Notes under the pieces: model-generated
Seen by the model: only the letters and a program-made list of their open reading frames with translations
Database searches by the model: none
What the model was told of the DNA's origin: nothing
Translations under genes and position numbers: made by a program
NCBI GenBank assembly: GCA_035716045.1
Contig: DASTKI010000165.1
Span: 80-64,079, forward strand
From: Ktedonobacterales bacterium
GTDB taxonomy: Bacteria; Chloroflexota; Ktedonobacteria; Ktedonobacterales; JADMIN01
Direction of reading: 5' to 3'
Length of the DNA stretch: 64,000 bases
Shown: one piece after another, positions 12,301 to 61,390 of the stretch
How positions within the stretch are numbered: the stretch's first letter is position 1
How the letters are laid out: each line of letters starts with the position of its first letter

Positions 12301-12666
12301 CCGTCCTCACGCGAGATCGCGCTGTACCATCACGCCGCGCGCCTTCCCGAGCAGGACCATCTTTAACTATACCACCAGCGCCCCATACCGCCTGCCGCTT
12401 CCCTCACAATCGCATAACAAACGGGCGGTATGACTCGGCCTATTTCGCCATCCAGACCGACACCGTCTCTCCACCAGGGCTACCAGGGCGTCACCGCCGC
12501 CACGACCACCATCTACCCGCCCGGAAAAAAGTCAGGACTCGCCTCCTCCGTCAAGCTCACCACCTGAGCCGGAACGATCTACCTGTCACCCATCGTGGCC
12601 AGCGAAAGCAGCCTCTGACTGGCGCCCCGCCCCGTCCGCCACCGCCTTCGTGTCCCAGCCCGCGCA

Positions 12667-12713
12667 GGGGGCTTCGCGGCCGCCAGGCCCTTAGCCACGG
12701 CTTCAGCCGCCCG
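12667..12713 (+). repeat. Family B repeat (gggcttcgcggccgccaggcccttagccacggcttcagccgcccg)
   Basis: Near-identical to the units at 17607-17730. Abuts the stop codon of 12716..15061. Confidence 0.8.
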
Positions 12714-12715
12714 TC

Positions 12716-15061
12716 TCACCACCCAGCCGACAGCGGCGGCGTGATCGTCGCCGCGTCAAGCTCCGCCTGCGTGGGGCGCGCCAGCCCTGGCCCATATTCT
12801 CGCGAGAGCGGCAGGACCACCAGATCGAGGAACAACTCCTTCGCCGTCTCCAGCGTCAGCCCGCCAATCTGTGGCCGCCACCAGCTATGCGTCTCGCGCG
12901 AGACGATCACGCCCGGCGCCACATCCGCCCGCGCGCCCGATGGCAGCGGCGCCACCACCACCGCGCCCTCGCCCGCGACCCAGCTTCCCGGCGCGCAGGT
13001 CGCCCGCGCCGAGAGCGGCTTCCCGCCCGCTCCCTGGAACAGGAAATGGAAGTGATAGAGCGCCACCGCTGGCCCCGGCGGCGCCGAGCGCAGCGCCGCC
13101 CACAGCGTCACCAGCCGCGCCGGCAGCCCGCCGCCCGCTGGCAGGATGAATGCCCGGTCCAGCCGCAGCTCCCCATTCACCACCGCCAGCCCGCTCGCGC
13201 GCGGCCCCTCCGGGTTCGGCGCGACCGCCACTAGTGGATACGTCGCGCCCCGCGCTAGCGCCAGCCTGCCGATCTCGCGCGTCCCCGGCGCGCTCAGCAG
13301 CGCGCGGATCGCCAGCCCCGACCCATCCATCACCAGCGTCGGCGCCGCCCCATCCCCAGCCGGCGGCGTCAGCGCGCAGGCATCCGAGGTATACGCCGTC
13401 CACAGCGGCCCGCCGCCCGCCAGATTGTTTCCCCGCTGCGCCCAGTACAGCCCCATGAAGGGGTCGCCGGGATCGCCCGCCAGGAAAACCTGACGCGCAT
13501 GCAGCGCGACCGCCGCGCGCCCCGTCGCTGCCATCGCTGCCATATAGCTCGTCGTCGGGATTGCCCCCCACGTCGGCGCGGGCGACTCCCCGCTCGCCAG
13601 CGTCAGCGCGAACGCCCCCGTCAGCGCCACCTGCGCCACGATCACCACTCCCGCCACCGCCGCCATCGCCCCACCCGGCGCCGCCCGTCCCAACCTCCCC
13701 AGCCGTCCCAACCGCCCCAACCATGCATGCCATCCCCCCTCTCCTCTCCGGAGAGGGGGCCAGGGGAGGCCCCACACCCACCGCGCCGCCCGCCGCGCCT
13801 GCCCCGGCAGCCCCGCCACAAACGCGCCGACCGCCACATACAGCGGCGGCGTCACCACAAACGCATAGTGGACGTAGATCGGGCTCGCATGCCGCAGCGT
13901 CAGCGCCAGAAACACCGCAGGCGCGCCCACGACCAGCAGCCGCGCCCGCCACACGCGCCACCGCTCCCGCTCGCCTTGGGCCAGTTGAGGCCGCGAGAGA
14001 ATCCCCCAACCCTTCCTCGTCTCTCCCTCTCCCACGGGGAGAGGGGGCCGCCGGGGGGTGAGGTCCCGCAACGGCCGCCCTATCACCATCAGCGCCAGCC
14101 ATCCCAGGCTCAGCGCCACCAGCCCATCGAGCGCCGGCTCCAGCCAGGGCAGCGCCCGCGCCACCGCCGCATACCGCGTATCCGTCCCCAGCCAGTCCCA
14201 TGGTCGCGGCCCTAGCGCCGCGCTGATCTGCTGGACAGCCTGCCCGTCCAGGGCCCGCGGGGTCGCCAGATACGCCAGATAGATCGGCAGGTCATAGCCA
14301 TGGCTGGCCACCTCGAAGAGCGTGGTTGGGATATACAGCGCCAGCGCGCCCGCCACGCCGAGGTAGAAGTCGTACCACGTCACCGCCTCCCAACCCATCG
14401 CCAGACCCACCACGCTCAAAGGCAGTAACGCCGCCGTGATCGGGTGGACCTGGACCGCAGCCGCCATCAGCAGCGCATGGGGGATGAACCAGTGCCGCCG
14501 TCGCTCGACCATCCCCAGATGCAGCGTATAGAGCGCGCCGATGACCAGCGGCAGCACCAGACACTGCTGCCAGATGAACCCGCCCAAGTACGTATCATAG
14601 AGCGCCGTCGCGAACAGCAGCCCGCCCGCCAGCGCCGCCCACCGCCCAAACGCCCGTTCCGTCCAGATATACAGCAGCCCCACCGCCACCACATTCGCCA
14701 TCGCCTGGACCAGCGTCCATCGCTGCGGGTCATTGGCGAAGGGGTACAAGAGCAGCGTGTAGAGCGAAGTGTTCAGCGCCAGCAGCGAGTTATAGATCCC
14801 CGTCCCCGGCAGCAGATGATCGTGCGCCGCCCGCGCCACCTCCAGATACAGCAGCGCGCTATCGCTATAGAACGGCGACCGCCCCAGCCAGGAGAGCCGC
14901 AGGAACGCGCCCACCGCCAGCGTCAGCCAGAACTGCCACTGCCGCGCCCACCCCGGCGTCCGCGCCCCCAGCCATGCCGCCGCGCGCCATCCCCACGCGC
15001 CCCACACCCGCGCCCGCGCCTTCCACGTCACCGCGTCCTTCACCGCCGCCATCGCTTCCAT
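12716..15061 (-). CDS. Polytopic membrane glycosyltransferase (GT39/ArnT-like N-terminal half) with a large extracytoplasmic C-terminal domain
   Basis: 781 aa. The N-terminal half has many TM segments and an early SPFYSDSALLYLEVAR loop typical of PMT_2/ArnT-type GT-C enzymes. It contains two in-frame family A repeat insertions and a GRLGRLGRLGR tract. Confidence 0.65.
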   Translation of the reverse strand: MEAMAAVKDAVTWKARARVWGAWGWRAAAWLGARTPGWARQWQFWLTLAVGAFLRLSWLGRSPFYSDSALLYLEVARAAHDHLLPGTGIYNSLLALNTSLYTLLLYPFANDPQRWTLVQAMANVVAVGLLYIWTERAFGRWAALAGGLLFATALYDTYLGGFIWQQCLVLPLVIGALYTLHLGMVERRRHWFIPHALLMAAAVQVHPITAALLPLSVVGLAMGWEAVTWYDFYLGVAGALALYIPTTLFEVASHGYDLPIYLAYLATPRALDGQAVQQISAALGPRPWDWLGTDTRYAAVARALPWLEPALDGLVALSLGWLALMVIGRPLRDLTPRRPPLPVGEGETRKGWGILSRPQLAQGERERWRVWRARLLVVGAPAVFLALTLRHASPIYVHYAFVVTPPLYVAVGAFVAGLPGQARRAARWVWGLPWPPLRRGEGGWHAWLGRLGRLGRLGRAAPGGAMAAVAGVVIVAQVALTGAFALTLASGESPAPTWGAIPTTSYMAAMAATGRAAVALHARQVFLAGDPGDPFMGLYWAQRGNNLAGGGPLWTAYTSDACALTPPAGDGAAPTLVMDGSGLAIRALLSAPGTREIGRLALARGATYPLVAVAPNPEGPRASGLAVVNGELRLDRAFILPAGGGLPARLVTLWAALRSAPPGPAVALYHFHFLFQGAGGKPLSARATCAPGSWVAGEGAVVVAPLPSGARADVAPGVIVSRETHSWWRPQIGGLTLETAKELFLDLVVLPLSREYGPGLARPTQAELDAATITPPLSAGW
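13734..13775 (+). repeat. Family A repeat, copy 5, in-frame inside CDS 12716..15061
   Basis: cccccctctcctctccggagagggggccaggggaggcccc, translated on the minus strand as ...GLPWPPLRRGEGGWH... Confidence 0.8.
14022..14064 (+). repeat. Family A repeat, copy 6, in-frame inside CDS 12716..15061
   Basis: ctctccctctcccacggggagagggggccgccggggggtgaggtc, translated on the minus strand as ...RDLTPRRPPLPVGEGETRKG... Confidence 0.8.
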
Positions 15062-44578: not shown

Positions 44579-44719
44579 CTAGTGGCTGAATCTCACCGCG
44601 TCGGTGTTGCCGCCGCAGATGATGACGCCGACGCGCTCGCCCGGCGCCGACTGGTACTTGCCGGAGAGGAGGGCGGCGATGCCGCCTTTGCCGTTTAGAT
44701 GCGTTGGCGCTAGAACTGG
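44579..44719 (-). pseudogene. Displaced remnant of a threonine-dehydratase 3' end (attR-like copy)
   Basis: Own translation ...NGKGGIAALLSGKYQSAPGERVGVIICGGNTDAVRFSH* compared with the intact gene end ...GGATAFAALLSGKYQPAPGERVGVIICGGNTDAVAFHH*. 54 nt are identical (caccgcgtcggtgttgccgccgcagatgatgacgccgacgcgctcgcccggcgc). Confidence 0.75.
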
Positions 44720-44803: not shown

Positions 44804-45034
44804 ATGGGCGCACTGCCAGACCGCATCGTCATAGATCCCGCGATCAATCATGGCAAACCCGTCATTCGCGGCCTGCGCTATCCAGTCGAGACATTGCTCG
44901 AACTGTTGAGCGCTGGTATGACGATTGACGACATCCTCGCGGACTATGAAGACCTAGAACGTGAAGATGTGCTTGCCGCGCTGGCCTTCGCCGCGCGCCT
45001 CACACATATCCAACGTATAGAATCCATCGCATGA
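44804..45034 (+). CDS. DUF433-family antitoxin-like protein
   Basis: IDPAINHGKPVIRGLRYPVETLLELLSAGMTIDDILADYEDLEREDVLAALAFA is the canonical DUF433 pattern. Confidence 0.85.
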   Translation: MGALPDRIVIDPAINHGKPVIRGLRYPVETLLELLSAGMTIDDILADYEDLEREDVLAALAFAARLTHIQRIESIA

Positions 45035-45047: not shown

Positions 45048-45401
45048 ATGAGGTTTCTGGTGGATGCGCAACTGCCTCGCCGGATCGTCTATCGCATGCG
45101 CGAGACGGGCCACGATGCGTTGCATACACTGGACCTGCCGCATGGGAACCGTACGCCTGATGCGGAGATCATCGCGATTGCTTCGCGTGATGATCGTATT
45201 GTCGCAACAAAAGACGCCGACTTCGTGAACTCGTTTGTGCTGCTGCGCCAACCACCCCGCTTGCTCTTGATCTCCACTGGCAACATCAAGAACGCTGATC
45301 TGGAAACACTACTGCTATCACAGATGGCGAACATTGAGGCCGCATTCACCACATGCGATTTCGTCGAGCTGACCCGCCAGGCGCTTGTCCTGCGCGCGTG
45401 A
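45048..45401 (+). CDS. DUF5615-family PIN-like putative toxin
   Basis: MRFLVDAQLPRRIVYRMRETGHDALH...DAEIIAIASRDDRIVATKDADF. Starts 14 nt after the DUF433 gene, the usual two-gene arrangement. Confidence 0.85.
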   Translation: MRFLVDAQLPRRIVYRMRETGHDALHTLDLPHGNRTPDAEIIAIASRDDRIVATKDADFVNSFVLLRQPPRLLLISTGNIKNADLETLLLSQMANIEAAFTTCDFVELTRQALVLRA

Positions 45402-45450: not shown

Positions 45451-46395
45451 TCAGTGGTGGAAGGCCACCGCGTCGGTGTTGCCGCCGCAGATGATGACGC
45501 CGACGCGCTCGCCCGGCGCTGGCTGGTATTTGCCGGAGAGGAGGGCGGCGAAAGCCGTCGCGCCGCCTGGCTCGGCCACCAACCGCAGCGCCTTCCACAG
45601 CGCCTCTTGCGCCGCACGGATGTCGTCGTCACTCACCAGCGTCACGCCAGAGACATACTCTTGCGCCAGTGGGAACATCAGCGAGCCGACCTGGCGCGGG
45701 GCCAGTGAGTCGGCGGCGATGCTGCCGGTGGGCGCGTCCACCGGATGGCCCGCCTCCAGCGCGTTGTAGAGCGTCGGCGCGCCCTCCGGCTCGACGCCAA
45801 CAACCTTCACCGCGCCGCGATACCACGCCGCGACGCCGCCGATCAGCCCACCGCCGCCAACCGCCACGAGTAGCGTATCAATCGCGCCGTCCTGCTCCTG
45901 CAGCTCGCGGCCCAGCGTCCCCTGGCCCAGCAGCGTCTCCACCTGCTCGAAGGGATGCACAGGGAGCGCGCCGCTGCGCACGCGGAACTCCTCGCTGGCG
46001 GCGTGCGCGTCAGCAAAGCGCTCGCCCGTCACGACCAGCTCCGCGCCCAGTTCGCGGATGCGCGCGATCTTGGCCGGCGAGGAGATGGTAGGAACGAAGA
46101 TCGTCGCCGGGACGCCGAGCCGTTGCGCGGCGAACGCCACCGCCACACCGTGATTGCCGCCCGACGCCGCCACCACGCCCGCCTCGGGAATATCACGCAG
46201 CAGCAGATTGGCGAAAGCCCCGCGCGCCTTAAACGAGCCCGCGTGCTGCAGCAACTCCAGCTTCACCGCCAGCGGCCCGGCGGGCAGGCCGAAGTCCTGG
46301 CCATCCACCGCGATGAGCGGCGTGCGGCGGATGTAGGGGGCGATGCGCTCGTGGGCCTCCGCGATGTGCTCCGGCGCGATCGGCGATTCGGTCAT
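45451..46395 (-). CDS. Threonine/serine dehydratase (PLP-dependent, fold type II)
   Basis: PLP-lysine motif LQHAGSFKARGA, glycine loop ASGGNHG, 314 aa. Confidence 0.85.
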   Translation of the reverse strand: MTESPIAPEHIAEAHERIAPYIRRTPLIAVDGQDFGLPAGPLAVKLELLQHAGSFKARGAFANLLLRDIPEAGVVAASGGNHGVAVAFAAQRLGVPATIFVPTISSPAKIARIRELGAELVVTGERFADAHAASEEFRVRSGALPVHPFEQVETLLGQGTLGRELQEQDGAIDTLLVAVGGGGLIGGVAAWYRGAVKVVGVEPEGAPTLYNALEAGHPVDAPTGSIAADSLAPRQVGSLMFPLAQEYVSGVTLVSDDDIRAAQEALWKALRLVAEPGGATAFAALLSGKYQPAPGERVGVIICGGNTDAVAFHH

Positions 46396-48354: not shown

Positions 48355-48666
48355 GCGCCGCCACCCCGCTCTCGTCGCGTACGGCCACTGGTCCACATGG
48401 ATTCGCACATCCAGTATACGCCAGCCCGCCGACGCATGAGCGACCCGCGCCTACCAGACCGGTGAGGGACAGAAGGGCCAGCCCGCTTGGGCCGGGCGCT
48501 TGACGCCGCGCGCGTTTGCTTGCATGATGCGTCATATGCTCATCAATCAGCGCGCGCTCGCTTGCCACGAACGGCGTCTCATGGCGTGGGCGCCAGCTGG
48601 ACACGCAGCCCCTCGCGAGTAAGGCGCTATGCGGGTGGGGGAAACAAGACGAGGAGGCGCCACCGC

Positions 48667-49281
48667 ATGCTGGACATCACGACCTTTACCCGGACACCCT
48701 TTCACGTGCTCTATCTCGTGCGCCACGGGCAATACCAGCGCGCGTTCTCGCCGCCCGAGACACCCGACGGCCCGCTGACCGAGCTGGGCGCGGCGCAGGC
48801 CGAGCTGACTGGGCGGCGCCTCGCGCGGCTGCCCATCTGCGTCATCCACCACAGCACCCTCATCCGCGCGCGCCAAACAGCCGAGATCATCGCCCAATAC
48901 TTCCCGGATGTCGAGTTACGTCCTTCGCCGTTGCTGCGCGAGTGCCTGCCCACCGTCCCGCCCGCCTACATCCCCTACCTGGAGGGCGCCTCACCCGCCG
49001 ACTTCGCCCAGGGCGACCGCCAGGCGCGCGAGGTCTATCGCAAGTGGTTCAAGCCGCCCGCAGCGGACGCGACCGAATCCACGCGCGAGATCGTCGTCTC
49101 CAGCGGCAACCTCATCAGCTACCTCGTCGCGCGCACGCTCGGCGCCACCGGCAAGCAGTGGGTCGCCACCAGCATTCAGCACTGCGGCGTCACCGAAGTC
49201 GCGCTCGGCGGCCCGCGCAAGACGCTGCTTCTGCGCCACAGCGACACCGGCCACCTGCCCCCCTACCTCCAGACCATCTGA
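48667..49281 (+). CDS. Histidine phosphatase family protein (PGAM-like); its 3' end is the island integration site
   Basis: Trimmed to MLDITTFTRTPFHVLYLVRHGQY (RHG motif), plus LTELGAAQA and HHSTLIRARQTA. Ends ...LLLRHSDTGHLPPYLQTI*. Confidence 0.75.
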   Translation: MLDITTFTRTPFHVLYLVRHGQYQRAFSPPETPDGPLTELGAAQAELTGRRLARLPICVIHHSTLIRARQTAEIIAQYFPDVELRPSPLLRECLPTVPPAYIPYLEGASPADFAQGDRQAREVYRKWFKPPAADATESTREIVVSSGNLISYLVARTLGATGKQWVATSIQHCGVTEVALGGPRKTLLLRHSDTGHLPPYLQTI

Positions 49282-49424
49282 TGGGAGATGCGCTAGCCAT
49301 ACGTCATCCGCAACGCTCCTGCGCGCATGCCTGCTAATTCTTCGTCATAATAGAAATGTCTCATCGCATAACTTGACTCTTTGCAGCGATAAGTTGTAAA
49401 CTTCCAGCGGTATTCTGCTCCCGT

Positions 49425-49453
49425 GTGACAGAGTATGCTCTACTATATATAGT
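49425..49453 (+). promoter_or_regulatory. Candidate sigma-70-type promoter for the island plus-strand gene pair
   Basis: GTGACA (49425-49430), 17-nt spacer, TATAGT (49448-49453), in an AT-rich stretch about 200 nt upstream of ATG 49653. Confidence 0.3.
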
Positions 49454-49652
49454 GCGGCCAGGTTCAGTATGACACCAATTCAATGAGGAGGGAGAATTGA
49501 TGTAGATCGGGCGTCCCCCGCCTCAATGAGCCCGCGTTCACGCTCCCACTCGCAAACGCTCCTGAGGCAGTCCCCGCTGGACAACCTCATGCGCCACCCA
49601 ACGGACAGATGTACGAAACGATACGCCCGCAACAACGAAGGAGGGGCTCATC

Positions 49653-50885
49653 ATGGTCAATAATCCACCACGCGCAGCCCGCGCAGCCCAGCAGCCCGGC
49701 GCTGTAACGATAGGAATCGAATTATCCGCCACACACAAGCGCATCTGCGCCCTACCCGTTGGAGCCGAGCCGAATAAAGACGAGTCCAACATTGAGAAGC
49801 GGCTTAAATTCCTCGACAGTAAAGCTGACCCCTGGGCTTCGCCCCCATTTGCGCCTCTCGGGAGTCTCATTCCCCGGCAAACGACAGAGGTTATCCAGTT
49901 TGTCAACGCCTTTATCAAGACCAGCAATATCAACCCAGATGACGTCACCGGCGTGGGTGTGGCCATCGTCGCCAGCTTCGCACCACACACGGGCATCGCG
50001 AGCGTCACCCGAGCGAGCGATCTCGAGCAGCAACTATCCACCATTTTCAAGAAGGCCACCCGCGTGCGGTGCTTCAACCGGTCCCAAATCTCTTGCTTGC
50101 TGGAGCGCGGCCAAGGAATGGCGGCGGGCCTACGAAATGACGACATGGTCTACATTACTGTCAGCAACAACATCAATCTCGGCGTCATTCAACAGGACGC
50201 GCGCGGCGATGGATGGAATTGGGGCAACGCGGGCGGCATCCCCCATATCCCTTTGACGCAGAACCGGCTCACTGACGTAGCGAGTCGAATGAACCCGCCG
50301 CTCGAATTGGCCCTCCCCAAGGAGGTATGCCCTGTTTGCGGTGAACTGCTCTGCCTGACCAACCTCGCCTCTGGCCGCGCCATCGTCACCGCCGCCCGGC
50401 GCGCGATCTCCGGGGCCACGCCCACGAAGATCATTGACATGATGCGGGCAAGACCGAACTCCGCGCACGCCCAGATCATTCCACCTGATTCGGGTGGAAG
50501 TGTCGCGATTTCTCCAGCCATCCAGGGTGTGACCTCGATAGATACGCGCGCGGTCATCGAAGCAGCGGAAGATCAGGATCCTATCGCGCTCCAGATCATT
50601 CGCCAAGCCGGGCTGGCCCTGGGGCTCGTCATAGCGCTTCGGGTCATTCCGAGCTTCAACCCATTCATCGTTACATTGGGCAGCGCTGGGGCCAGAAGTG
50701 ACACCCTGCTCGATGTGGTCAGACAGGTCGCGGTCAGTGTACAGGGCGGCTTGATCCGACATCCCACCGGCGGCGCGAATGTGGCCGTCAATTTCCTCCC
50801 GACGGCGTTCCCCGGCTATACGGGCCTGCTTGGCGCCGCCTGGTGCATCCAGGCGATGAGCGACGAGGAGATACCCTTGTTCTGA
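49653..50885 (+). CDS. ROK/ASKHA-superfamily protein with degenerate phosphate-binding motifs
   Basis: RBS gaaggagggg. ROK-type zinc motif CPVCGELLCLTNLASGRAI, GNAGGIPHIPL (compare GxAGEIGH) and adenosine-motif-like FIVTLGSAGA. However, phosphate-1 is IGIELSATH (not DxGGT) and phosphate-2 is ITVSNNINLGV (not GTGIGGG). Confidence 0.65.
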   Translation: MVNNPPRAARAAQQPGAVTIGIELSATHKRICALPVGAEPNKDESNIEKRLKFLDSKADPWASPPFAPLGSLIPRQTTEVIQFVNAFIKTSNINPDDVTGVGVAIVASFAPHTGIASVTRASDLEQQLSTIFKKATRVRCFNRSQISCLLERGQGMAAGLRNDDMVYITVSNNINLGVIQQDARGDGWNWGNAGGIPHIPLTQNRLTDVASRMNPPLELALPKEVCPVCGELLCLTNLASGRAIVTAARRAISGATPTKIIDMMRARPNSAHAQIIPPDSGGSVAISPAIQGVTSIDTRAVIEAAEDQDPIALQIIRQAGLALGLVIALRVIPSFNPFIVTLGSAGARSDTLLDVVRQVAVSVQGGLIRHPTGGANVAVNFLPTAFPGYTGLLGAAWCIQAMSDEEIPLF

Positions 50886-50897
50886 TCCGGACGCGCA

Positions 50898-53174
50898 GTG
50901 GCGTGTGAGGGCGAGACGATCGCGGCTCCCGCCGCCGCGCGGCATATCCAGCTTGCCATCCCCTATCGTTTATTGCTAGTGAGCGATTGGTTACAGCGAA
51001 TGACACGATATGCGCTCCTCGCGGCATGCGCTGGCGCTCAGAGCGCGCCATCTGAGCGCCGATTGAGGTTTGCGGAATCTGATATCACCGAACTGCTGCT
51101 GCCATGGTTGCTTGAGGACCCCGCATGGAGAGACGGCGGAGACATAGCCCTGTGCGGAGTGAGCGCGCCAACGACGGCGACAAGTGGCGTCAGGCAGATC
51201 GCTGATCGCCATTTCCTCGCCGAATTGAAGCGAATCGTGTCGCACGCGGAGGATGACGACTTCGTTCTCATCTACTTCTCTGGACACGCAGTCTTGCGCG
51301 AGATCCGCGGCGTTGAGAAGACCTGCCTGGAGTTTCCATCCACTTGGGTCCCGATTGATGAGGTTCGCAACACCTGTCGAGAGAATATGCGCGGCGCCGC
51401 TATCCTCTTAACGCTTGATTGCTGTTATCCCATATCCGGCGATGCAGAGCCGGAGAAATCCCGTCTCTCCAGGATCATATCCGCATTGGGCTCACTCATT
51501 CAGGAAGCGGACATCGAGAGAGCCAATAGCCACCACTCAGGTTCGCTCGTATATATTGGCGCCTGTTTGCCTGGCCAGGAGTCCTTCGAATCGAATCGCG
51601 AGCAAAGCGGCTACTTTCTGAGCGCGTTCATCAGAGGTTGCGACGGAGGCGGCGAGTCACTTCCCTCCGTGGATGGCGGTGTGGTGACAACCGGCAGTCT
51701 CATCCAGTTCATTCAATGTGACCTGAGAGGCTGGCAGATTCCCGTCGCGTACAGCGCAGACCCATTGGGACTTCGACTGAAGGAGCTCAGCGCGTGGCAA
51801 GGGCCACGACACGACTGGAACGGGCCATCACATCCAATCATGCTGAACAGCGAGCGGTGCAGCAGACTCGGGCGGAAACTGATGGCGCGTTCGGAATTCG
51901 TGGTCAAGTCCAGTGCGCAGCCAAAGTGGTCCACCAGTCAGTTTCTCAGCACGCGTGACCTGTTTGTGCAAAGCTGCGCATCTGTTTTACCCCCATTGGG
52001 CGCCCGGCTAACGTTGGAGGTAGGCTTCACCAATCAGACGCTCACGTTCGTTGAACAGTGTCCCGCGCATCTCAATCCTGTGGAAGCGGAAAAAGGCCCA
52101 CGCTATCTCGTCGAGAGCAAGCCGCCAGTAGTCATGGCGGAGGGCGCATACAACATCTCGCTCACGGAGCACAAGAATCATGGCCATAATGAACAACTCT
52201 TGGTTCTGTCCCAACATACACCGCAACCAACCCTGTATGTGTATCGCGGCTTGAAGACAACCTTGGCTATTGATGATCGCGCCCCACGAAAGCTGGGACC
52301 AGGCACGAGTTCCGCGCTCCATCCGGCGTCTGGCAGAGTATTCGCCCTCGATTCGGGGGGCGCCCTCACCGTGTGGCCACTCGAACAGTCAGAACGAGCC
52401 GCGCCTGTCTCGTGGGCAGGGCATCAAGCGTCGTGGATGGCGCTGAGCGAAAATGCGTTTGCGGTGGCGGCGGACGGTGATTCCGTGTATTTTTGGAGAC
52501 TGAACTCGGCCTGGACACAGGAAATCGGTTTGCGCGCTCTCCCCCAGGCGCCCCAGGGCTTGGGACGGATCCAGGCTCTTGCCGCAAAGTCGGAAAAGGC
52601 CGTCAATTCCTGGGCGCCTGGAACTCATGTCGCCGCCGGATTTGGCTTTGGAGCCGTCTCGCAAGGAGCGCTACTCCTGTGGAACACCGAGCCAGGGTCA
52701 AACACACAATTCAGCCCACCGCAACTCGTTGCGACTGAACACCATTCAGTTGACGCCATCGCGTTTTCGGATGATGGCGGGCGGCTGGCCTTTGCCGCGG
52801 GCCCCATCGTGCGCGTGAAACAGCGAGCCAAAACAGGAGATTACGGAAGACGACAAGTCGTGCTGGACATATCAGACTATATAAAGACTCCGCCACCGCC
52901 AGCCGGCGCGCCCCAATTAGCGATAACTCGTCTCGCATTCTCGCCGAGGATATTTGCGGGATCCGTGCTGGCGATTGGAACGAATTATGGTGATGTGCTG
53001 CTGTGGGAATATCGAAGGCACAGACCCCCTGTATCGCTACCCAGCGACCGCGCCCTCGTTCAGGACCTCTCGATAGAGGCATGGAACCGTTATGAGGCGC
53101 GCCTCATCGTGAGAGGCGCCAAGAGCGTGGAAGTCTGGGCGCTGGCCACGCAGAGAGTAGCACGTGTACGATAA
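50898..53174 (+). CDS. Caspase-like (peptidase C14) protease fused to a WD40-like beta-propeller
   Basis: His-Cys dyad contexts FVLIYFSGHA (His codon 51285-51287) and AAILLTLDCCYPISG (Cys codons 51420-51425). p10-like SGYFLSAFIRGCDGG...DGGVVTTGSLIQFIQ. The C-terminus has at least 5 repeats ending in aromatic-W (LTVWPL, VYFWRL, LLLWNT, VLLWEY, VEVWAL). The start is either GTG 50898 or ATG 51000 (MTRYALL). Confidence 0.75.
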   Translation: MACEGETIAAPAAARHIQLAIPYRLLLVSDWLQRMTRYALLAACAGAQSAPSERRLRFAESDITELLLPWLLEDPAWRDGGDIALCGVSAPTTATSGVRQIADRHFLAELKRIVSHAEDDDFVLIYFSGHAVLREIRGVEKTCLEFPSTWVPIDEVRNTCRENMRGAAILLTLDCCYPISGDAEPEKSRLSRIISALGSLIQEADIERANSHHSGSLVYIGACLPGQESFESNREQSGYFLSAFIRGCDGGGESLPSVDGGVVTTGSLIQFIQCDLRGWQIPVAYSADPLGLRLKELSAWQGPRHDWNGPSHPIMLNSERCSRLGRKLMARSEFVVKSSAQPKWSTSQFLSTRDLFVQSCASVLPPLGARLTLEVGFTNQTLTFVEQCPAHLNPVEAEKGPRYLVESKPPVVMAEGAYNISLTEHKNHGHNEQLLVLSQHTPQPTLYVYRGLKTTLAIDDRAPRKLGPGTSSALHPASGRVFALDSGGALTVWPLEQSERAAPVSWAGHQASWMALSENAFAVAADGDSVYFWRLNSAWTQEIGLRALPQAPQGLGRIQALAAKSEKAVNSWAPGTHVAAGFGFGAVSQGALLLWNTEPGSNTQFSPPQLVATEHHSVDAIAFSDDGGRLAFAAGPIVRVKQRAKTGDYGRRQVVLDISDYIKTPPPPAGAPQLAITRLAFSPRIFAGSVLAIGTNYGDVLLWEYRRHRPPVSLPSDRALVQDLSIEAWNRYEARLIVRGAKSVEVWALATQRVARVR

Positions 53175-53236
53175 GCGCTGGCCGTAGGCATCCGCCTAGA
53201 CGAGCCTCGCGGAGGCCCATGCTGATGTGTTGGCGG

Positions 53237-53749
53237 CTACCGCAGGAGGGCCACAAACAACTGCAGCGCTGCGATAACCAGCGAAGCCAGAGAAACGATG
53301 ATACCGAACTTCGCTATGCGCAGCGAAGTTCGTTCCGCTTCCGCATCCCGTTTCTCCAGGTTCACCTCCTGCTTGATCACGAAGAGCTGAATCACGACCG
53401 GATCTGATTGGGCTGGCTCCTTGGTTATTGTTCCATGCGGGTGACGCTCAGCCAGCTTCGCATTGATGTAGTTGGCGATTGTGTCGCTGTCATCGAAAAC
53501 CTTCCCGACCGATTTCTTTGTCGCATCGCCAAGCAGGAGGTTGTCCACAGGCTCGCTGGTCTGGTCGCTCAGCCTTTTCAAGTGCTCATCAATGACGCTG
53601 GCTCGGGCCTTGAGAGATCCTCGGAAATATCGTGCGACAAGAAAAGCGATCGCCGAGACCGTTAAGGAGATGAGGAATAGATACACGGAAAGAAGCTGCG
53701 AAGACAACATATACCCCCCGCCAAGACTCTTGGTTAGCTGGATAATCAT
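53237..53749 (-). CDS. Hypothetical 2-TM membrane protein (terminal TM helices flanking a charged soluble segment)
   Basis: TM1 LLSVYLFLISLTVSAIAFLVA and TM2 FGIIVSLASLVIAALQLFVALL. AT-rich island codon usage. Alternative start at ATG 53710. Confidence 0.5.
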   Translation of the reverse strand: MIIQLTKSLGGGYMLSSQLLSVYLFLISLTVSAIAFLVARYFRGSLKARASVIDEHLKRLSDQTSEPVDNLLLGDATKKSVGKVFDDSDTIANYINAKLAERHPHGTITKEPAQSDPVVIQLFVIKQEVNLEKRDAEAERTSLRIAKFGIIVSLASLVIAALQLFVALLR

Positions 53750-53886
53750 TGCACGCCAGGAATCAATAATGGCGTGCAGAAGTACAAACCAAAGCGATAT
53801 TTCAACGAGGTAATCGCGTCATGGATCTTCTCCGCGAGCCACACGTCTCGCGCGTACCTCACCACATATCTACCGGTTTGCTGAAT

Positions 53887-54306
53887 TCACCTTTCTGTAG
53901 AATTATTGGTATGCCCCACGACCACATCGAGCGCGCCCTGCTCATCAAGCCAGAGCCCGATTACGCTCTCATGTGTGCCCAGCGACACAACCTGCTGAAC
54001 GCAGCGGCGAATTTGAGCAAGATGCTCCGCCTTAGTCGCTGGATTGGCTGAACATGGAGCATGCCCGACAACCGCAACAACTCGTGAGCGATGTGACTTA
54101 GCGCTCTCTTGAAGGCAGGTCTTGACCATAATCCACTCGGGGCTTACTTCTTCTGCGCTGAGTCTCTTGTCTGGTCCAAAGAGAGAGATATTGTCTACAT
54201 AGTCTGCATTGTATTGTTTTCGCATCCAGGTGGAGACTGGTTCCTGCACAAAGCCATCAGAGCAGTTGATCACTGCGACAAATCGTTCTGTTCCCACTGC
54301 GTACAA
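53887..54306 (-). CDS. Hypothetical small protein with CSD...HxxC motif pair (possible beta-carbonic-anhydrase-like zinc site; speculative)
   Basis: 139 aa. VAVINCSDGF and VVGHAPCSA lie about 67 residues apart, reminiscent of the beta-CA CxDxR...HxxC pattern but lacking the Arg. Start is TTG 54306 or GTG 54297. Confidence 0.45.
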   Translation of the reverse strand: MYAVGTERFVAVINCSDGFVQEPVSTWMRKQYNADYVDNISLFGPDKRLSAEEVSPEWIMVKTCLQESAKSHRSRVVAVVGHAPCSANPATKAEHLAQIRRCVQQVVSLGTHESVIGLWLDEQGALDVVVGHTNNSTER

Positions 54307-54360
54307 CTTTCCACTATACAGAGTGCGCGATACGCCAGCAGCGCAAGAATGACAAGAAAG

Positions 54361-54369
54361 AATATAGCA
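54361..54369 (-). promoter_or_regulatory. Candidate extended -10 element (TGcTATATT) for the island minus-strand gene pair
   Basis: Plus-strand aatatagca reverse-complements to tgctatatt, about 55 nt upstream of the ORF start. Confidence 0.3.
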
Positions 54370-54405
54370 TACAGTATTTGAAAGCGCCAGCGCTATGGCA
54401 GGTTA

Positions 54406-54457
54406 TTCTACGTCACAGCGATACTGGCCATCTGCCCCCTACCTCCAGACCATCTGA
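54406..54457 (+). pseudogene. Displaced, frameshifted copy of the histidine-phosphatase 3' end (attR-like)
   Basis: Aligned base by base to 49229-49281: 5 substitutions, all at third codon positions and all G/C to A/T, plus a 1-nt deletion in the C6 tract. The last 27 nt are otherwise identical through the TGA. Confidence 0.8.
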
Positions 54458-55924: not shown

Positions 55925-57358
55925 CTAGTTCTGGACAGAACCTGCGCTGGCAGGCGCGCTCTGCGCCACGCGCTCGACGTGGATCGCCCGCGCCGCGTGG
56001 CCGTCTCCCTCCTTGCGCCCGGTCACGCGCAAGAGATCACCAGCGGTGACGCGCGACAGCGTGCTCAGGAGCGACTGGCTCTGCCCCGAGCCATCGTCGA
56101 ATGTCGTATCAGGGCTGATGCTGAAGCGCATGACGCGCCCATTCTTGACACGCGCGGCGGTGAGCGATTCGACGCCGACCTCCAGCGCCGTCACGCGCCA
56201 CCGTTTGCCCTTCTGGCCGCCTTTCCCGCCTTTGGACGCCTTCCGCTCCACAGAGACGGGTTCGCCAGCCTCACCAGCCTCACCAGCCTCGGCGGACTCA
56301 GCGGATTCGAGCGGCTCGACAGATGTGGCGGCTTTGCTGGCTGCGGCGGCGCCCTTGGCCGGGACAGGCTCCAGCTCAGGCTCGGGCGAGATGGTCGCCA
56401 GGCGGGCGGGCTTGAATAGTTCGCCGCTGTACGTCTTCGGCACAAGCATCGTCACCGCGCGCGCCAGGATCGAGAACTCGTAGATCGTGCCCGCCGGTGT
56501 GGGCTTCTCATGTTTCAGCTTGACCGAGCCGCCATCCACCTGGAGCGGCAGTGTGACCGGCGCGGCGATCCTGACATGGGACGCGCGATAGAACTGCGCG
56601 ACGTCCGAGCTTGGCTGCCGCTGGCACAGGAGCGAGCCCAGCAGCCGCCCGGCGCTGAGCGGCCCCGTCGCCGTAATCAGGCACACATCGAATAGACCGT
56701 CATCGGCGAACGCGTTGGCCGTGAGGTTGGTCATGCCAGCGTAGCGCCGCGTATTGCTGATAATGATCTCCGAGACGCGCCCGCGCCAGTGAAGATCGTC
56801 CAGCTCGACACGAACAGGGACGGCCCTGGCCTCCGGCAGCGCCTGGAGCGTGGCCAGCCCGATGGCCGCCGGGCCGATGCGATTCTTGAGCGGCTTGCTT
56901 ACATGATCAATGATCGCCCCGTCCAGCCCCACGCCCGCCATCAGGACGAAGTGATTCTTGTGCTTGCCGTTGACAGTGACCTCTCCGACGTCCACCCGGC
57001 GGCGCTCAGAAGCGACGAGCTGCATGGCGGCCATTTGCAGCCGCGACGCGACGCCGACTTCGTGCGCCCAGACATTGGCGGTGCCGCCCGGCAAGACGCC
57101 CACCGCCGTCTCCGTCCCCAGCACTCCCTCCACCAGCTCGTTGAGCGTGCCATCGCCGCCGCAGTCCACGACGACATGGCAGCCATCGCGCGCCGCCTCG
57201 CGCGCCAGCTCGGTGGCATGGCCGCCATGCAGCTTCTGCCGCACGGAAACATCCCAGCCCTGCTCGCGCAGGATGCTCAGCGGCTCCGAGAGGTCCACGC
57301 CCCCACGGCCTGAGCGCGGATTGGTGATCAGGCGCGCCTTGATCGCGCTTTGCGTCAT
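55925..57358 (-). CDS. Diacylglycerol/lipid kinase family protein (YegS/DAGK catalytic domain) with a C-terminal extension
   Basis: RLITNPRSGRGG...VVVDCGGDGTLNELVEG...GVLPGGTANVWA. The ~170-aa C-terminal extension includes a GEAGEAGE tract. Confidence 0.85.
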   Translation of the reverse strand: MTQSAIKARLITNPRSGRGGVDLSEPLSILREQGWDVSVRQKLHGGHATELAREAARDGCHVVVDCGGDGTLNELVEGVLGTETAVGVLPGGTANVWAHEVGVASRLQMAAMQLVASERRRVDVGEVTVNGKHKNHFVLMAGVGLDGAIIDHVSKPLKNRIGPAAIGLATLQALPEARAVPVRVELDDLHWRGRVSEIIISNTRRYAGMTNLTANAFADDGLFDVCLITATGPLSAGRLLGSLLCQRQPSSDVAQFYRASHVRIAAPVTLPLQVDGGSVKLKHEKPTPAGTIYEFSILARAVTMLVPKTYSGELFKPARLATISPEPELEPVPAKGAAAASKAATSVEPLESAESAEAGEAGEAGEPVSVERKASKGGKGGQKGKRWRVTALEVGVESLTAARVKNGRVMRFSISPDTTFDDGSGQSQSLLSTLSRVTAGDLLRVTGRKEGDGHAARAIHVERVAQSAPASAGSVQN

Positions 57359-57397: not shown

Positions 57398-59104
57398 TCA
57401 GGCGACTCGAATACGGCGATACCGCGCCTGCGCGAGCGAGTAGACCCCGTATGCGAGCAGCCCCAGCGCGATCACCGCGAGCAGGACGCTGCCAAATGGC
57501 TCGCGCAGCGCCACCTCCAGCGCTCCCGACAATCCCTTCGCCTGGCTGGGATCATGCCGCAGGGCCGCGACGATGAAGAACGCGCCGATGATGGCGAAGA
57601 CGCACCCCAGGGAGGTGTATCCCACCCGGCCAAGTAGGACCACGCCCGCCCGCACGTTGTCTGGAGCCTGGGTCAGGTCGAGCTGCCTGCGAAACTCGGC
57701 GCTGTACGCCCGGTAGAACAGCGCGCCCGCGACACCCAGCGTGACCACCCCAACCAGGATGACCAGCGCCACACCTCCCGGCGCGTTGAGCAGGCGAGCC
57801 GTCCAGTCGTGCGCCTGGGCGTTGGAGCTCTTGCCGCCGCTGCTCTTGCCGGTCGCGAGCTCAAAGGCGAGCAACGCCAGACCGCCATAGATCACGCCGA
57901 TCGCGGCGTAGCCGAGCCGGGCGATGACGCCCTTGGCGTCCGTCCCGTAATGTTCCGTATCGAACACCGCCTGGACCAGACACCACAGCCCGTAGCCGAA
58001 CCAGCCCACCGCGGCCAGGATGAGCAGGAACGCCCCGAAGGGCTGATGGTAGATCACCCGCGTCGCGCCCGCCTGGTCCGTGAGGCTGCCGCCAATGTGG
58101 AGCGCGGCGGCCATCGCCAGACCGCCGATGATCAAATAGACGACCCCTTTGGCGGCATAGCCAGCATGGGCAAGCGTCGTGACAACTGGGCTATCGGCGG
58201 CGCGGCGCGCCGTGCGGGCGGTGTCCTCCGCGACCTCGTCGCTCGTGCGCGTCTCACTCTTAGGCATCCGTACCCTCCCCAGCGCCTGATAGATCAGGAT
58301 GACGACGACAAGCGCCATGCTCCCTAGCAAATAGCTCGCCAGCACATCGCTCGGCCAGTGCTCGCCCTCCAGCAGGCGCGACAGGCCAATGAAGACGAGA
58401 AAATAGAGGCAGACCGCCTGCACGACCCGAATCCAGGGCGTCCAGCGCGGATGGATGCGTAGCTCTTGCAGGGAGAGGAACAGCAGAAATCCATAAAACG
58501 CCGTCACATGCGAGACATGCCCCGACGGAAAGCTGCTCAGCCCGATATTCTTGACCGCATGGATGTGGACATTATTCGGGCGCGGGCGCGCCACCCAGCC
58601 ATTCAGCGCGAAGCTCGCGCCATCGGCCAGGAAGCCAGCGATGAGTGTCGCCACCGCATACCGCCAGCGCCGGAAGATCACGAATGTGAGTATGACGGCG
58701 AAGACGATGATCCCCGCTGGCGTTGGCCAGTTGGCGTCGCTGGCGAAGTTGATGAAGGCCACGACCGCTGGCGCTTTGATGCGCTGAATCAGCAGCAGCA
58801 GCCCGACATCGCCGGGAAACAGGGTGGAGGAGTGGGCGCGCAGCGTGAGCGCCATGCCCAACACGGCGGCGAGCGCCAGGACCCACAGCGCTGCGACGAT
58901 GGCGACGCGCCTCCGGCTGTATGGCAGCCAGCCTGATCGAGCGCCGGGCTGTTGTGACGCCTCCGCCCCGGTGGAGGTGACTGTATCAGTATCGAGATTC
59001 GCCACGATTGCCCCTTTCAGCGGTGCGGGCATAGACTCCGCCGCCACGCGCGCGTGACGCCGACCCGTAGCGGCGCGCCCGTCAGGAATGGTGGCGTGGG
59101 TCAT
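57398..59104 (-). CDS. PAP2-family phosphatase fused to DUF1206-type membrane repeats
   Basis: PAP2 motifs RPRP, SFPSGHV and SRLLEGEHWPSDV, followed by three GYAAKGVVYLIIGGLA-like repeats. The start is uncertain (ATG 59110, 59104 or 59032). Confidence 0.7.
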   Translation of the reverse strand: MTHATIPDGRAATGRRHARVAAESMPAPLKGAIVANLDTDTVTSTGAEASQQPGARSGWLPYSRRRVAIVAALWVLALAAVLGMALTLRAHSSTLFPGDVGLLLLIQRIKAPAVVAFINFASDANWPTPAGIIVFAVILTFVIFRRWRYAVATLIAGFLADGASFALNGWVARPRPNNVHIHAVKNIGLSSFPSGHVSHVTAFYGFLLFLSLQELRIHPRWTPWIRVVQAVCLYFLVFIGLSRLLEGEHWPSDVLASYLLGSMALVVVILIYQALGRVRMPKSETRTSDEVAEDTARTARRAADSPVVTTLAHAGYAAKGVVYLIIGGLAMAAALHIGGSLTDQAGATRVIYHQPFGAFLLILAAVGWFGYGLWCLVQAVFDTEHYGTDAKGVIARLGYAAIGVIYGGLALLAFELATGKSSGGKSSNAQAHDWTARLLNAPGGVALVILVGVVTLGVAGALFYRAYSAEFRRQLDLTQAPDNVRAGVVLLGRVGYTSLGCVFAIIGAFFIVAALRHDPSQAKGLSGALEVALREPFGSVLLAVIALGLLAYGVYSLAQARYRRIRVA

Positions 59105-60974
59105 TCGCATCCGCTGCGCCAATGTCAGGAGCCGTCGCCAGCTCATTCGCGGTCGGTTTGGGCAGGGCGCGTGACGCCGCCTCAGCCTGCCGGCTCTTGG
59201 CCCGCCAGTACAACTCCAGCACTCCACCCAGATACATGGCGCCGATCAGATAGCCCGCAACGACATCGCTGGGCCAGTGGGCGCCAAGGTAGACACGCGA
59301 TGCGCCAACCAGCGCGATCAGGGAACCGCCCGCGGCCGTGATCGCGCGCCGCAGCGCCGATGGCCGTAGGTTCGCCAGCGCCGCCGCCACCAGAAACCCG
59401 AGGGAGCTGACGTAGAACATCACATGGCCGCTGGGGAAGCTCGGCTCCCGGATCAGCCGCAGCACGCGCACGCGAGGCTCGGTTGGGCGCTCTCGCCGCA
59501 CGATGCGCTTGAGGACAAAGTTCAGCCCGCTGACGCTCCCGGCGAGCAGCAGGTAGAGCGCCTCCAGGTGGAAGCGAGCGCGCCAGAGGGCGAGCGTTAT
59601 CCCGGATATGACCAGGGTCGCTGGCCCCGGAAATCCCGCCCAGGCCACCCCGCGCCAGAACCGGTCCATGCGCGCCGACCGCGTGCGCTGGAGCGTCTGG
59701 GTGATCGCCAGGTCGCCGGGAAGGATGCTGGCGCGGCGCGCCGCGACCCCCGTGGCGACCGCCACGCCAGCGGCGCCGAGATAGAGCGTGCGGATCAGCG
59801 CGGCGCGGCGCGCGGCGCGGCGCGGCGGCTCCGTGACGTCCCGCACGGCGCTTTCGAGCGCGGCGCTCCCCGCCGCGACAACGGCGGCGGGTGAAGGCGG
59901 CTTGGCGGGCGAGCGTTTCAGCATCGAGGCGAGCGCCCGCCACGCCGTTCGCCATGGCCGCGCCTCGAGCCGCGCGGGCGCGGGGAGCGCCGCCAGCCGG
60001 AGCGCATGCGGCAGGACGTAGGCTTCGATACGCCGCCAGCGCCCCTCAGGACCGCAATCGCCATCAACATGGCCATCCACTTCCATGGCCCACGTCGCAC
60101 GCGATGAAGCGCCATCCGGCTCCACAACCACGCTCCTGGCGCGATACCGCCGTACCCGCTGGTCGTAGGCGCGGCGCCCGCCGATGCGGCGAATGACATG
60201 GGCCAGCAGCTCCAGGGGGCGGAAGCGCTCGTAGACCACGACATCGAGCAGCCCATCATCCATGCGAGCGCCTGGCGCGACGTTCATGCGCATAGCGATG
60301 GCGGGCGCGTTGCACAGCAGGACATGCAGGGCATGAAAGTGGTGGGCGCGACCATCCAGCCTGAGCGTCAGTGGCGCCGGCTGATACCGCGCGAGCGCCT
60401 GTCCTACCTGGATGGCGGCCGCTGGAGCCGCCAGGCTGTTCTGCTTGACGGACTCGCCGATGCCCATCAGTTCGGACAGCATCCCGAATCCCGCCGCTTC
60501 GATGAAGATCGTGTCGCCAATGCGCGCCAGGTCCAGCGGGCGAAAGCGCCCCGTGCGCAGGGTCTCGGCGACGCCGTCGAGCGCCGCGTCCGCGTCCATC
60601 GGCACGCCAAGCGCCGCGGCAATGTTGTTCATCGTGCCAGCGGGCAGAATACCTAGCGCCGCGCCCGCGCCCGCGCGGCTCGCGCGCCAGAGCCCCCTGG
60701 CCACGTCATGAATGGTTCCGTCGCCGCCCACCGCGACTACCACCCGGGCGCCATCCAGCGCCGCGCGCTCCGCGACCGCCGCCAGGTCGTCGGCGGCGCC
60801 AAGCGCGATCACCTCGCCATCCAGCCCGCGCCGCCGCAGCGCCGATTCCAGCGCGTCGGCGGCGAAAGCGCCCTCGCCTGTCTGGTGGGCGCTTTCGTGC
60901 ATGAGCGCGACAACTCGCCGGGACGCGGGCGCGCTCCTCGGCGCAGGCGCCGACGATGACGCGTGTGGTTGCAT
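59082..60974 (-). CDS. Fusion protein: N-terminal DAGK-type lipid kinase plus C-terminal PAP2 lipid phosphatase
   Basis: Trimmed to MQPHASSS (ATG 60974). Kinase motif VVVAVGGDGTIHDV...GILPAGTMNNIA. PAP2 motifs RRERP, SFPSGHV and SRVYLGAHWPSDV, all in one frame. Confidence 0.8.
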   Translation of the reverse strand: MQPHASSSAPAPRSAPASRRVVALMHESAHQTGEGAFAADALESALRRRGLDGEVIALGAADDLAAVAERAALDGARVVVAVGGDGTIHDVARGLWRASRAGAGAALGILPAGTMNNIAAALGVPMDADAALDGVAETLRTGRFRPLDLARIGDTIFIEAAGFGMLSELMGIGESVKQNSLAAPAAAIQVGQALARYQPAPLTLRLDGRAHHFHALHVLLCNAPAIAMRMNVAPGARMDDGLLDVVVYERFRPLELLAHVIRRIGGRRAYDQRVRRYRARSVVVEPDGASSRATWAMEVDGHVDGDCGPEGRWRRIEAYVLPHALRLAALPAPARLEARPWRTAWRALASMLKRSPAKPPSPAAVVAAGSAALESAVRDVTEPPRRAARRAALIRTLYLGAAGVAVATGVAARRASILPGDLAITQTLQRTRSARMDRFWRGVAWAGFPGPATLVISGITLALWRARFHLEALYLLLAGSVSGLNFVLKRIVRRERPTEPRVRVLRLIREPSFPSGHVMFYVSSLGFLVAAALANLRPSALRRAITAAGGSLIALVGASRVYLGAHWPSDVVAGYLIGAMYLGGVLELYWRAKSRQAEAASRALPKPTANELATAPDIGAADANDPRHHS

Positions 60975-61080
60975 GTTGGCCCCTTCATAATGCGCCCACC
61001 AGGCAGGCCCCATGTCGCGGCGTGTAGGCGTCGCGGCGCGGCTATTCCGCTGCGCTCTTCCGTAGCGCAAATGCGGCGCC

Positions 61081-61132
61081 ACCCGCCTTCGCCACCCGCC
61101 TTCGCCACCCACCTTCGCCACCCACCGTCGCC
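61081..61132. repeat. 13-nt x4 tandem repeat upstream of the kinase-phosphatase fusion gene
   Basis: acccgccttcgcc acccgccttcgcc acccaccttcgcc acccaccgtcgcc. Confidence 0.9.
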
Positions 61133-61390
61133 GCATGGCTCGCTCGTGGCGTCCGGGCTCGCGCTCTCACGGCCACATCACAGCGGCGCGCTCACATTCA
61201 CAGACACGTCACAGCACGGCCGAAATGCGACTTTTGTCGCGTCATACGGCGAATGCCGCCAACTACTGTGGACGGTAGGGGGCATGGCTAGCTGGCGGCG
61301 CGATCTCGCCCGCGGCAGGACGCTTCCCCCTGGATACGCCACCGAATTCGATCATCACCGATTTCGATCACCGACGAGGGGGAACATCTC

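Follow-up and report, generated by a model that had tools for sequence, protein, structure and literature searches.

The window analysed here is a stretch of 64,000 nucleotides from a Ktedonobacterales bacterium (contig DASTKI010000165.1), and our subject is a pair of adjacent forward-strand genes lying within a small low-GC island. The first gene (49653..50885, +) encodes a catalytically degenerate 410-amino-acid (aa) protein of the ROK family (ASKHA fold). The second (51000..53174, +) encodes a 724-aa protein in which a predicted family C14 (caspase/metacaspase-type) peptidase domain is followed by a linker and a WD40-type beta-propeller. Our overall explanation, to which we assign a probability of roughly 0.55, is that this C14 protease-linker-propeller protein and the pseudo-ROK, as its dedicated partner, form a two-gene mobile cassette.

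The protease gene and its C14 domain

A mechanical list of open reading frames (ORFs) places the protease gene at 50898-53174 (+), with 758 aa counted from a GTG at 50898, and the original prediction took it at this extent. The frame is indeed present on the forward strand at that length; its start does not hold, GTG 50898 being mechanical only. The probable true coding sequence runs from an ATG at 51000 to 53174 (724 aa plus stop) and matches P0001, an NCBI protein of 724 aa from a Ktedonobacterales metagenome-assembled genome (VFQ25_11950) that is 100% identical to the window protein. The Met at 51000 is aligned in P0001, P0002 and six more distant homologues, with the N-terminal pattern M-x-R-Y/H-A-L-L, and since the NCBI model and all homologues begin there, we take ATG 51000 rather than GTG 50898 as the true start. 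Residue numbers below refer to the 724-aa protein; those of the 758-aa version, used in the original prediction, are higher by 34.

The protease subfamily is tiny, with nine full-length members among 1.84 billion cluster representatives. A word-indexed search of 5.8 billion proteins returned only the window protein itself and P0002 (44% identical), and a word-indexed search with an 8-sequence profile was swamped by WD40 kinases. A search with a domain profile brought in P0003, which is a "caspase family protein" of Ktedonobacteraceae and passes PF00656. Exhaustive HMMER searching of 1.84 billion cluster representatives gave 139 matches at E<=1e-3, including six full-length relatives besides the window protein and P0002 (P0004, P0005, P0006, P0009, P0010 and P0011; 632-707 aa; E from 6e-49 to 3e-12). 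A profile scan of genome contigs (A1) found three distant caspase-domain loci in Proteobacteria and no family members.

The peptidase domain spans aa 1-251 (51000..51752, +). The window protein itself does not match Pfam PF00656 even at E<=1. Its best NCBIfam match is caspase_w_EACC1 ("caspase, EACC1-associated type"; E 5.6e-7, 29 bits vs a cutoff of 140, aa 98-186), and it is also sub-threshold for the PADLOC "caspase" model (E 1e-3). Neither the single protein nor profiles of two to three sequences returned anything but spurious nanobody and racemase matches when searched against PDB sequences, and a 23-sequence profile was required. The latter derives from an alignment (A6) that is headed by the window protein, comprises 23 N-terminal domains and is also the source of the invariance counts given below. 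It matched the plant metacaspase AtMC4 (6W8S, E 5.7e-20) and Yca1 (4F6O, E 8.6e-17), as well as AtMC9, TbMCA2 and GSU0716, and reached MALT1 at about E 1e-9, the metacaspase and MALT1 matches ranging overall from E 6e-20 to 4e-8. The PF00656 gathering score is attained by P0003, P0004, P0005, P0006, P0009 (exactly 21.4), P0010 and P0011. Because these relatives reach PF00656 and the 23-sequence profile matches metacaspases and MALT1, the window protein can be recognised as a C14 homologue via intermediates. By this homology, the N-terminal ~250 aa is a divergent C14 (metacaspase/orthocaspase-type) domain. The assignment of the N-terminus to the caspase family, and of its His and Cys to the catalytic positions, is thus borne out by alignment and profile, and so is that of a p10-like segment, which belongs to the same C14 fold (in P0004 the PF00656 match extends to model position 223 of 233).

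Four columns are invariant in the alignment of 23 domains: D28, G95, H96 and C142. The motif YFSGHAVL begins at 51273 and its His, H96 (H130 in the 758-aa numbering), is encoded at 51285..51287 (+), as had been proposed; the codon was verified, and the residue is invariant in 23/23 sequences and falls on the SGHG His of solved metacaspases, on whose motif YFSGH(A/G) superposes. TLDCCYP begins at 51411 and its two Cys codons occupy 51420-51425, so that the motif and the coordinates of the predicted Cys stand. The choice of the first Cys (C175 in the longer numbering) as nucleophile does not. It is the second Cys of LDCC, C142 (C176; 51423..51425, +), that is invariant in 23/23 sequences and superposes on Cys139 of the AtMC4 motif DSCHSG, and the AtMC4 C139A entry 6w8r has Ala in this very column. 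In P0004 and P0011 an Ala or Thr stands in place of the first Cys, so the C175A mutant proposed earlier would miss the nucleophile. Given that H96 and C142 are invariant and aligned with the catalytic residues of AtMC4, we consider the dyad intact, with C142 as the nucleophile, and the protein is probably an active family C14 cysteine protease with the dyad His96/Cys142. An inactive pseudo-protease acting only as a scaffold is very improbable here. The sequence is very divergent and under the Pfam C14 threshold, and pseudo-orthocaspases do exist (PMC6426788), yet conservation extends to the His, the Cys, the S1 aspartates and the Gly that precedes the His, whereas known pseudo-variants replace the dyad.

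Three acidic residues are predicted to line the S1 pocket: Asp28 (51081..51083, +), invariant in the 23 sequences; Asp140 (51417-51419, +), conserved in at least 90% of them; and Glu197 (51588-51590, +), invariant in the eight full-length members. The metacaspase counterparts of D28 and D140 in the alignments are the aspartates of the ND and DxC motifs; that of E197 is the acidic residue in the segment of QTSAD type. In non-caspase C14 enzymes, cleavage at Arg/Lys is attributed to an acidic pocket by Klemencic & Funk 2017 (PMC5756287). From the conservation of the acidic S1 residues and this precedent we infer a preference for Arg/Lys at P1, i.e. the protease would cleave after Arg/Lys.

The AlphaFold model of this region alternates beta and alpha elements with a predicted local distance difference test (pLDDT) score of 73-93 across aa 1-140, and places the His after strand E88-102 and the Cys after strand E134-142; this order of elements fits the caspase-hemoglobinase fold. 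There is no prodomain: MTRYALL is the first strand, so the domain begins at residue 1, the accessory propeller is C-terminal, and the source is prokaryotic. The likeness to solved metacaspases (AtMC4 6W8S, Yca1 4F6O, TbMCA2 4AF8) and MALT1 concerns the profile homology (E 6e-20 to 1e-9) and the aligned SGH(G/A), DxC and ND Asp; unlike the metacaspases, the window protein lacks both the type-I prodomain and the long p20-p10 linker of type II, and carries a WD40 fusion.

The linker and the WD40 propeller

The remainder of the protein was analysed in two AlphaFold models, one of the full length and one of aa 286-724 (mean pLDDT 67-69), built from an 8-sequence alignment. The full-length model (mean pLDDT 67) falls below 50 at aa 252-337, shows strands of medium confidence at 338-430 and is confidently all-beta at 437-720. 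From these models we distinguish three parts. The first is a linker, aa 252-323 (51753..51968, +), which is Arg/Lys-rich, has pLDDT <50 in both models and is possibly disordered; its length varies among relatives (alignment A5), yet it is ~45% conserved with P0002. Two divergent blades, aa ~324-430 (51969..52289, +; pLDDT 31-69), then appear to open the propeller, with DSSP strands at 324-329, 336-344, 347-354, 384-393, 396-405 and 411-416. They are followed by six well-modelled WD40-type blades, aa 437-720 (52308..53159, +; pLDDT mostly 75-95), to which the fold matches also point. Five of these six blades bear strand ends of a hydrophobic residue and Trp, and all five W-ending repeats listed in the original prediction (LTVWPL, VYFWRL, LLLWNT, VLLWEY and VEVWAL) are found in the translation.

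Fold comparison agrees with a propeller. All 50 Foldseek matches listed against the PDB are beta-propellers, mostly WD40-repeat proteins (probability 1.00, best E 7e-12), so that a WD40-type propeller is predicted for the C-terminus, as had been claimed. Among the matches listed for the full-length model, the best TM-scores belong to ODA16 (TMt 0.74), Tako8 (0.67) and Rsa4/NLE1. The aa 286-724 model (pTM 0.74) displays eight strand groups, and its longest and best alignments are with TBLR1, Rsa4/NLE1 and Tako8 (TMq 0.48-0.54 over 415-488 columns), vs TMq 0.43-0.47 over 335-362 columns for the seven-bladed RACK1 and G-beta. The best 8-bladed matches to this model reach TMq 0.52-0.54 over 430-475 columns. 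Tako8 is labelled 8-bladed in the Foldseek output, and we take ODA16, Rsa4/NLE1 and TBLR1 to be 8-bladed too. The models thus point, provisionally, to a propeller of about eight blades. At the sequence level, the window protein has no PF00400 match and a weak one to Pfam WD40_Prp19 (E 7.5e-5, 22 bits vs a cutoff of 320), while the exhaustive profile search matches WD40 proteins down to 1e-17. All six full-length relatives carry WD40-type matches, but only some are above PF00400 gathering: P0005, P0009, P0010 and P0011 pass that score and P0006 falls short of it (20.3 bits). Pfam matches in the relatives begin at the equivalents of aa 395-435 or later, and an hhalign comparison of the middle region with the six clear blades gave no significant similarity, the assignment of the two extra blades being drawn from the models alone.

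The original prediction had described residues ~300-470 as matching nothing, and we likewise found no family or PDB sequence match for the middle region, nor any match to a nucleoside triphosphatase (NTPase) family. It had further suggested a single-protein system in which these ~180 aa form a distinct substrate or effector domain. The lack of a family match and the ~45% conservation with P0002 are compatible with such a domain, and the Arg/Lys-rich linker could hold autoprocessing sites. This reading is nonetheless improbable: aa 252-323 model at pLDDT <50, the strands of aa 324-430 extend the propeller with 8-bladed templates fitting best, and the region is variable in length and sequence among relatives and bears no enzymatic or pore-forming signature. 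With moderate confidence, then, the models resolve the "middle domain" into a linker and two extra blades, with no discrete effector or substrate domain. A better candidate for the substrate, effector or co-sensor role is the degenerate ROK-like gene directly upstream, a separate protein that the original prediction did not take into account.

We also considered an Apaf-1-like NTPase in this region and ruled it out, since the motif is missing and the region is too short (~185 aa) and all-beta; no Walker A motif can be read from the sequence of aa 252-436. The protein resembles Apaf-1-like and caspase-NACHT-WD40 proteins of the STAND class (signal-transducing ATPases that have numerous domains) in that a single system unites a WD40 sensor with a caspase-type domain. 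It departs from the caspase-NACHT/NB-ARC-WD40 STAND proteins in having no NTPase between the two, the intervening ~185 aa consisting, as modelled, of linker and beta-blades.

The closest architectural precedent is that of the WD40 orthocaspases, for which our references are Asplund-Samuelsson 2012 (PMC3501461) and Klemencic & Funk 2017 (PMC5756287). Among bacterial caspase homologues no accessory domain is more frequent than WD40 (10.9%; PMC3501461), and the caspase-WD40 architecture is well described (PMC3501461, PMC5756287). Like the cyanobacterial representatives (Trichodesmium TeMC9, the Gloeobacter paralogues), the window protein has its C14 domain, with a His-Cys dyad and predicted acidic S1 residues, at the N-terminus, no prodomain and a C-terminal WD40 region. 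It differs from them in being sub-Pfam for both domains, in its ~8 predicted blades, two of which are unrecognisable by sequence, and in its membership of a tiny clade in which a ROK-like partner is obligatorily encoded upstream. A regulatory role of the repeat domain over the protease, which is the standard reading for orthocaspase-WD40 proteins, would be consistent with this organisation.

The ROK-like partner gene and its genomic setting

The first gene of the cassette scores 60.9 bits against Pfam ROK (PF00480; cutoff 22.9), and a profile of seven partners matches glucokinase 2QM1 (E 2e-24), Mlc-like 1Z05 and human N-acetylmannosamine (ManNAc) kinase in the PDB. The partners, of 374-465 aa, have in common with ROK kinases and regulators (2QM1, Mlc 1Z05/1Z6R, ManNAc kinase 2YHW) the fold, the zinc-binding His and CxxC...C, and two C-terminal motifs, GG and GAA; H198, C226, C229 and C234, the ligands of the zinc, do not vary among them. 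They differ at the active site. The catalytic ND motif, whose Asp is D517 in human ManNAc kinase, has become NR or NL in 8/8 full-length partners (Asp to Arg/Leu), and DxGGT has become (I/V)E(L/I)xxT, with Asp replaced by Glu in an E-x-x-x-T pattern, again in 8/8 as judged from a first-strand alignment made by eye. The phosphate-2 glycines are degraded to varying degree, and ExGH is degraded in the window clade. No helix-turn-helix (HTH) family matched the partners in Pfam scans, so they also lack the N-terminal HTH of the regulators. Having lost the catalytic Asp and the ATP-phosphate motif, and having no HTH, the partner is neither a sugar kinase nor a ROK repressor; on its sequence, it looks like a pseudoenzyme retained for binding or for being acted upon. 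A role of the ROK gene as transcriptional repressor of the protease was likewise ruled out by the missing HTH.

The partners also bear features of their own. They share an insert (aa 270-300 in the window's ROK-like protein) that does not align to solved ROK structures and contains an invariant Asp-x-Gly, after which comes an invariant Arg (I-D-x-R-A-V). This family-specific Arg lies in (I/F)(D/Y)xR(A/S/G)(V/I) and is common to all eight full-length partners; as pure speculation, an Arg/Lys-specific protease might recognise or cut the protein there.

The ROK gene lies directly upstream of the protease gene, on the same strand and with a gap of 39-296 nt, in 10/10 contexts examined: the window, L001 (protease P0002), L003/L015 (P0004/P0156), L004 (P0005), L005-7 (P0006), the P0009 contig, L008/L016 (P0010/P0158), L009 (P0011) and L013/14 (P0163, which represents the P0003 cluster at full length). 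In two of them the ROK match is sub-threshold (L004, 19.8 bits; L005-7, 20.3 bits). This arrangement persists although protease identity across contexts falls to ~14-25% (14-45% overall), and locus GC across eight complete pairs spans 45-67%. No further neighbour is common to the contexts examined; ORFs of 150-170 aa beside several cassettes have no mutual similarity and do not constitute a conserved third gene. The identity matrices of ROK and protease are congruent (Pearson 0.85, Mantel p ~6e-4), in a statistic that is computed on eight pairs and owes most of its strength to two close ones. ROK and protease are an obligatory, co-diverging pair in this clade.

These observations bear on the possibility that the protein is an ordinary stand-alone orthocaspase-WD40, devoted to housekeeping or developmental proteolysis, with an unrelated ROK neighbour. 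Caspase-WD40 proteins are common and usually come without a described partner (PMC3501461), and some relatives do sit among core metabolic genes. This reading is quite improbable, though, when adjacency, strand and order are kept in 10/10 contexts at 14-45% identity, no other neighbours are shared, divergence is congruent, and the ROK partners have family-specific changes in common.

The cassette sits in a 5.2-kb island (49282..54457) with GC of ~0.52-0.62 vs ~0.68 outside. The island is flanked by a direct repeat of ~52 nt (49229-49281 and 54406-54457), exact over its last 23 nt (49259-49281 and 54435-54457), in which the 3' end of a His_Phos_1 (histidine-phosphatase) gene at 48487-49281 is copied together with its stop codon. 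It looks like an att-like insertion that regenerated the gene end. No integrase or transposase ORF was seen inside the island. Relatives elsewhere adjoin mobile genes: transposase fragments in L001, a resolvase and a TraG-like coupling protein in L013, and transposases together with a CHAT gene in L016. The cassette is best explained as self-contained and horizontally mobile.

Two of these contexts offer further detail. In L013 the P0163 cassette lies between a serine resolvase (2029-2607) and a TraG/TrwB-like type IV coupling protein (8981-10417), which suggests that an integrative or conjugative element carries it. In L016, a metagenomic contig, the region downstream of the P0158 cassette (10041-13786) holds a 1051-aa protein without Pfam family, then a 186-aa CHAT (caspase-like) protein and transposases, placing a second caspase-type gene close to the ROK-caspase-WD40 cassette.

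Three sigma-70-like promoter matches at 49373..49497 (+), all inside the 49282-49653 gap, may mark a cassette promoter; the evidence is weak, the regional count of 3 not exceeding the 2.3 expected from shuffles. The island also holds a 170-aa ORF at 53237-53749 (-), hydrophobic near both ends as in a small membrane protein and with a weak 8xMP match only, and a gene of the Pro_CA_2 "putative carbonic anhydrase" family at 53887-54306 (-; 116 bits), neither of which is conserved beside the cassette in other contexts.

The surrounding region contains a second insertion of similar style. A 99-nt direct repeat (92% identity; 44581-44679 and 45453-45551) duplicates the 3' end of a PALP-enzyme gene at 45451-46395 (-) and brackets a DUF433 and DUF5615/PIN-like pair at 44804-45034 and 45048-45401 (+), a probable toxin-antitoxin cassette. 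Downstream of the island runs a set of lipid-phosphate genes at 55925-57358 (-), 57398-59227 (-) and 59082-61136 (-), comprising a kinase of the DAGK_cat/YegS-like kind, a fusion of a PAP2 phosphatase with three DUF1206 repeats, and a 684-aa ORF overlapping the end of the PAP2 gene.

Proposed mechanism and significance

In the mechanism we propose, a flexible linker of ~70 aa would join the protease domain to a WD40 propeller of ~8 blades, the propeller would serve as recognition and regulation module, and the pseudo-ROK would be the dedicated partner of the protease. We favour the partner as substrate, i.e. as a latent effector or regulator freed by site-specific cleavage. This preference comes from the analogy with protease-effector modules, in which the effector gene directly precedes that of a caspase-like protease fused to a sensor. 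In such modules the upstream effectors are activated by cleavage, and the sensors fused to the protease include beta-transducin repeats (PMC12642450). The Ktedonobacter EACC1-caspase pair is one example of them, and it is the EACC1-associated caspase that constitutes the best NCBIfam match of the window protease. By the same analogy, the pseudo-ROK would be cleaved by the protease, possibly with a defence or cell-death output.

The cassette resembles protease-effector modules (EACC1-, Pepco-, MBL-, alpha/beta-hydrolase- and gasdermin-protease pairs; PMC12642450, PMC7159879) in that two genes co-diverge, with patchy distribution and in mobile contexts. Several points weigh against our explanation. 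Unlike in the modules just named, the partner here is a degenerate ROK/ASKHA-fold protein with no evident toxic activity, outside the ten partner families of PMC12642450 (we compared the recognised families Pepco, EACC1, MBL, alpha/beta hydrolase, CATASP, MPE, Csx30, CalpT and gasdermin). The window protein is under the Pfam thresholds for both C14 and WD40, and no PADLOC system model matches the cassette. The blade count and the disorder of the linker are provisional, coming from models built on eight sequences, and the congruence statistic carries the dependence on two close pairs given above. Ordinary chromosomal genes surround some of the relatives (in L005, PDH, SecG and MetH), so that context does not imply a defence role everywhere.

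The main alternative gives the ROK-like protein a different part: it would be a sensor that binds a small molecule or a foreign protein, docks on the propeller and activates the protease, whose targets would lie elsewhere (a broad, PCaspase-like activity) while the ROK-like protein stays uncut. In regulators such as Mlc and NagC the ROK domain serves as a ligand-binding module, the top faces of WD40 propellers commonly bind partner proteins, and a caspase-like protease without effector is reported still to give defence (PMC12642450). The L009, L013 and L016 partners moreover retain the sugar-site Glu-x-Gly-His, and those of L009 and L016 the GC-x-E residues as well. The window clade, on the other hand, has lost the ExGH Glu and the phosphate-2 glycines, meaning that sugar sensing is not family-wide although adjacency is. 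We hold the sensor arrangement to be a serious but rather unlikely alternative.

A broader proposal can be made tentatively: the ROK-like and caspase-WD40 genes may represent a class of two-gene system, protease plus partner with a conflict or cell-death role, that has so far gone undescribed. Equally tentative is the idea that this class has co-opted a former sugar-kinase fold, to serve either as a latent effector that cleavage sets free (e.g. at the invariant Arg) or as the trigger-sensing subunit of a metacaspase-type protease. A ROK partner goes unmentioned in the orthocaspase references, with 0 occurrences of ROK in PMC3501461 and none in the passages checked of PMC5756287, and ROK is also absent from PMC12642450 and from the survey by Kaur et al. 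(PMC7159879). Combining "ROK family" with caspase or metacaspase retrieved nothing relevant in the full-text open-access literature, where absence is no proof. The caspase-WD40 architecture is already known; what is new is the tiny subfamily and its constant pairing with ROK.

Caspase-WD40 fusions are common in multicellular-type bacteria, and to our knowledge almost none of them has a known substrate or trigger. A co-diverging, dead ROK-fold protein provides a concrete candidate substrate or co-sensor for one caspase-WD40 clade. Should cleavage or activation prove not to occur, the locus would amount to one further divergent orthocaspase-WD40 protein on a small genomic island. If it does occur, an ASKHA/ROK pseudoenzyme would join the short list of protease-controlled partners, a new fate for the sugar-kinase fold.

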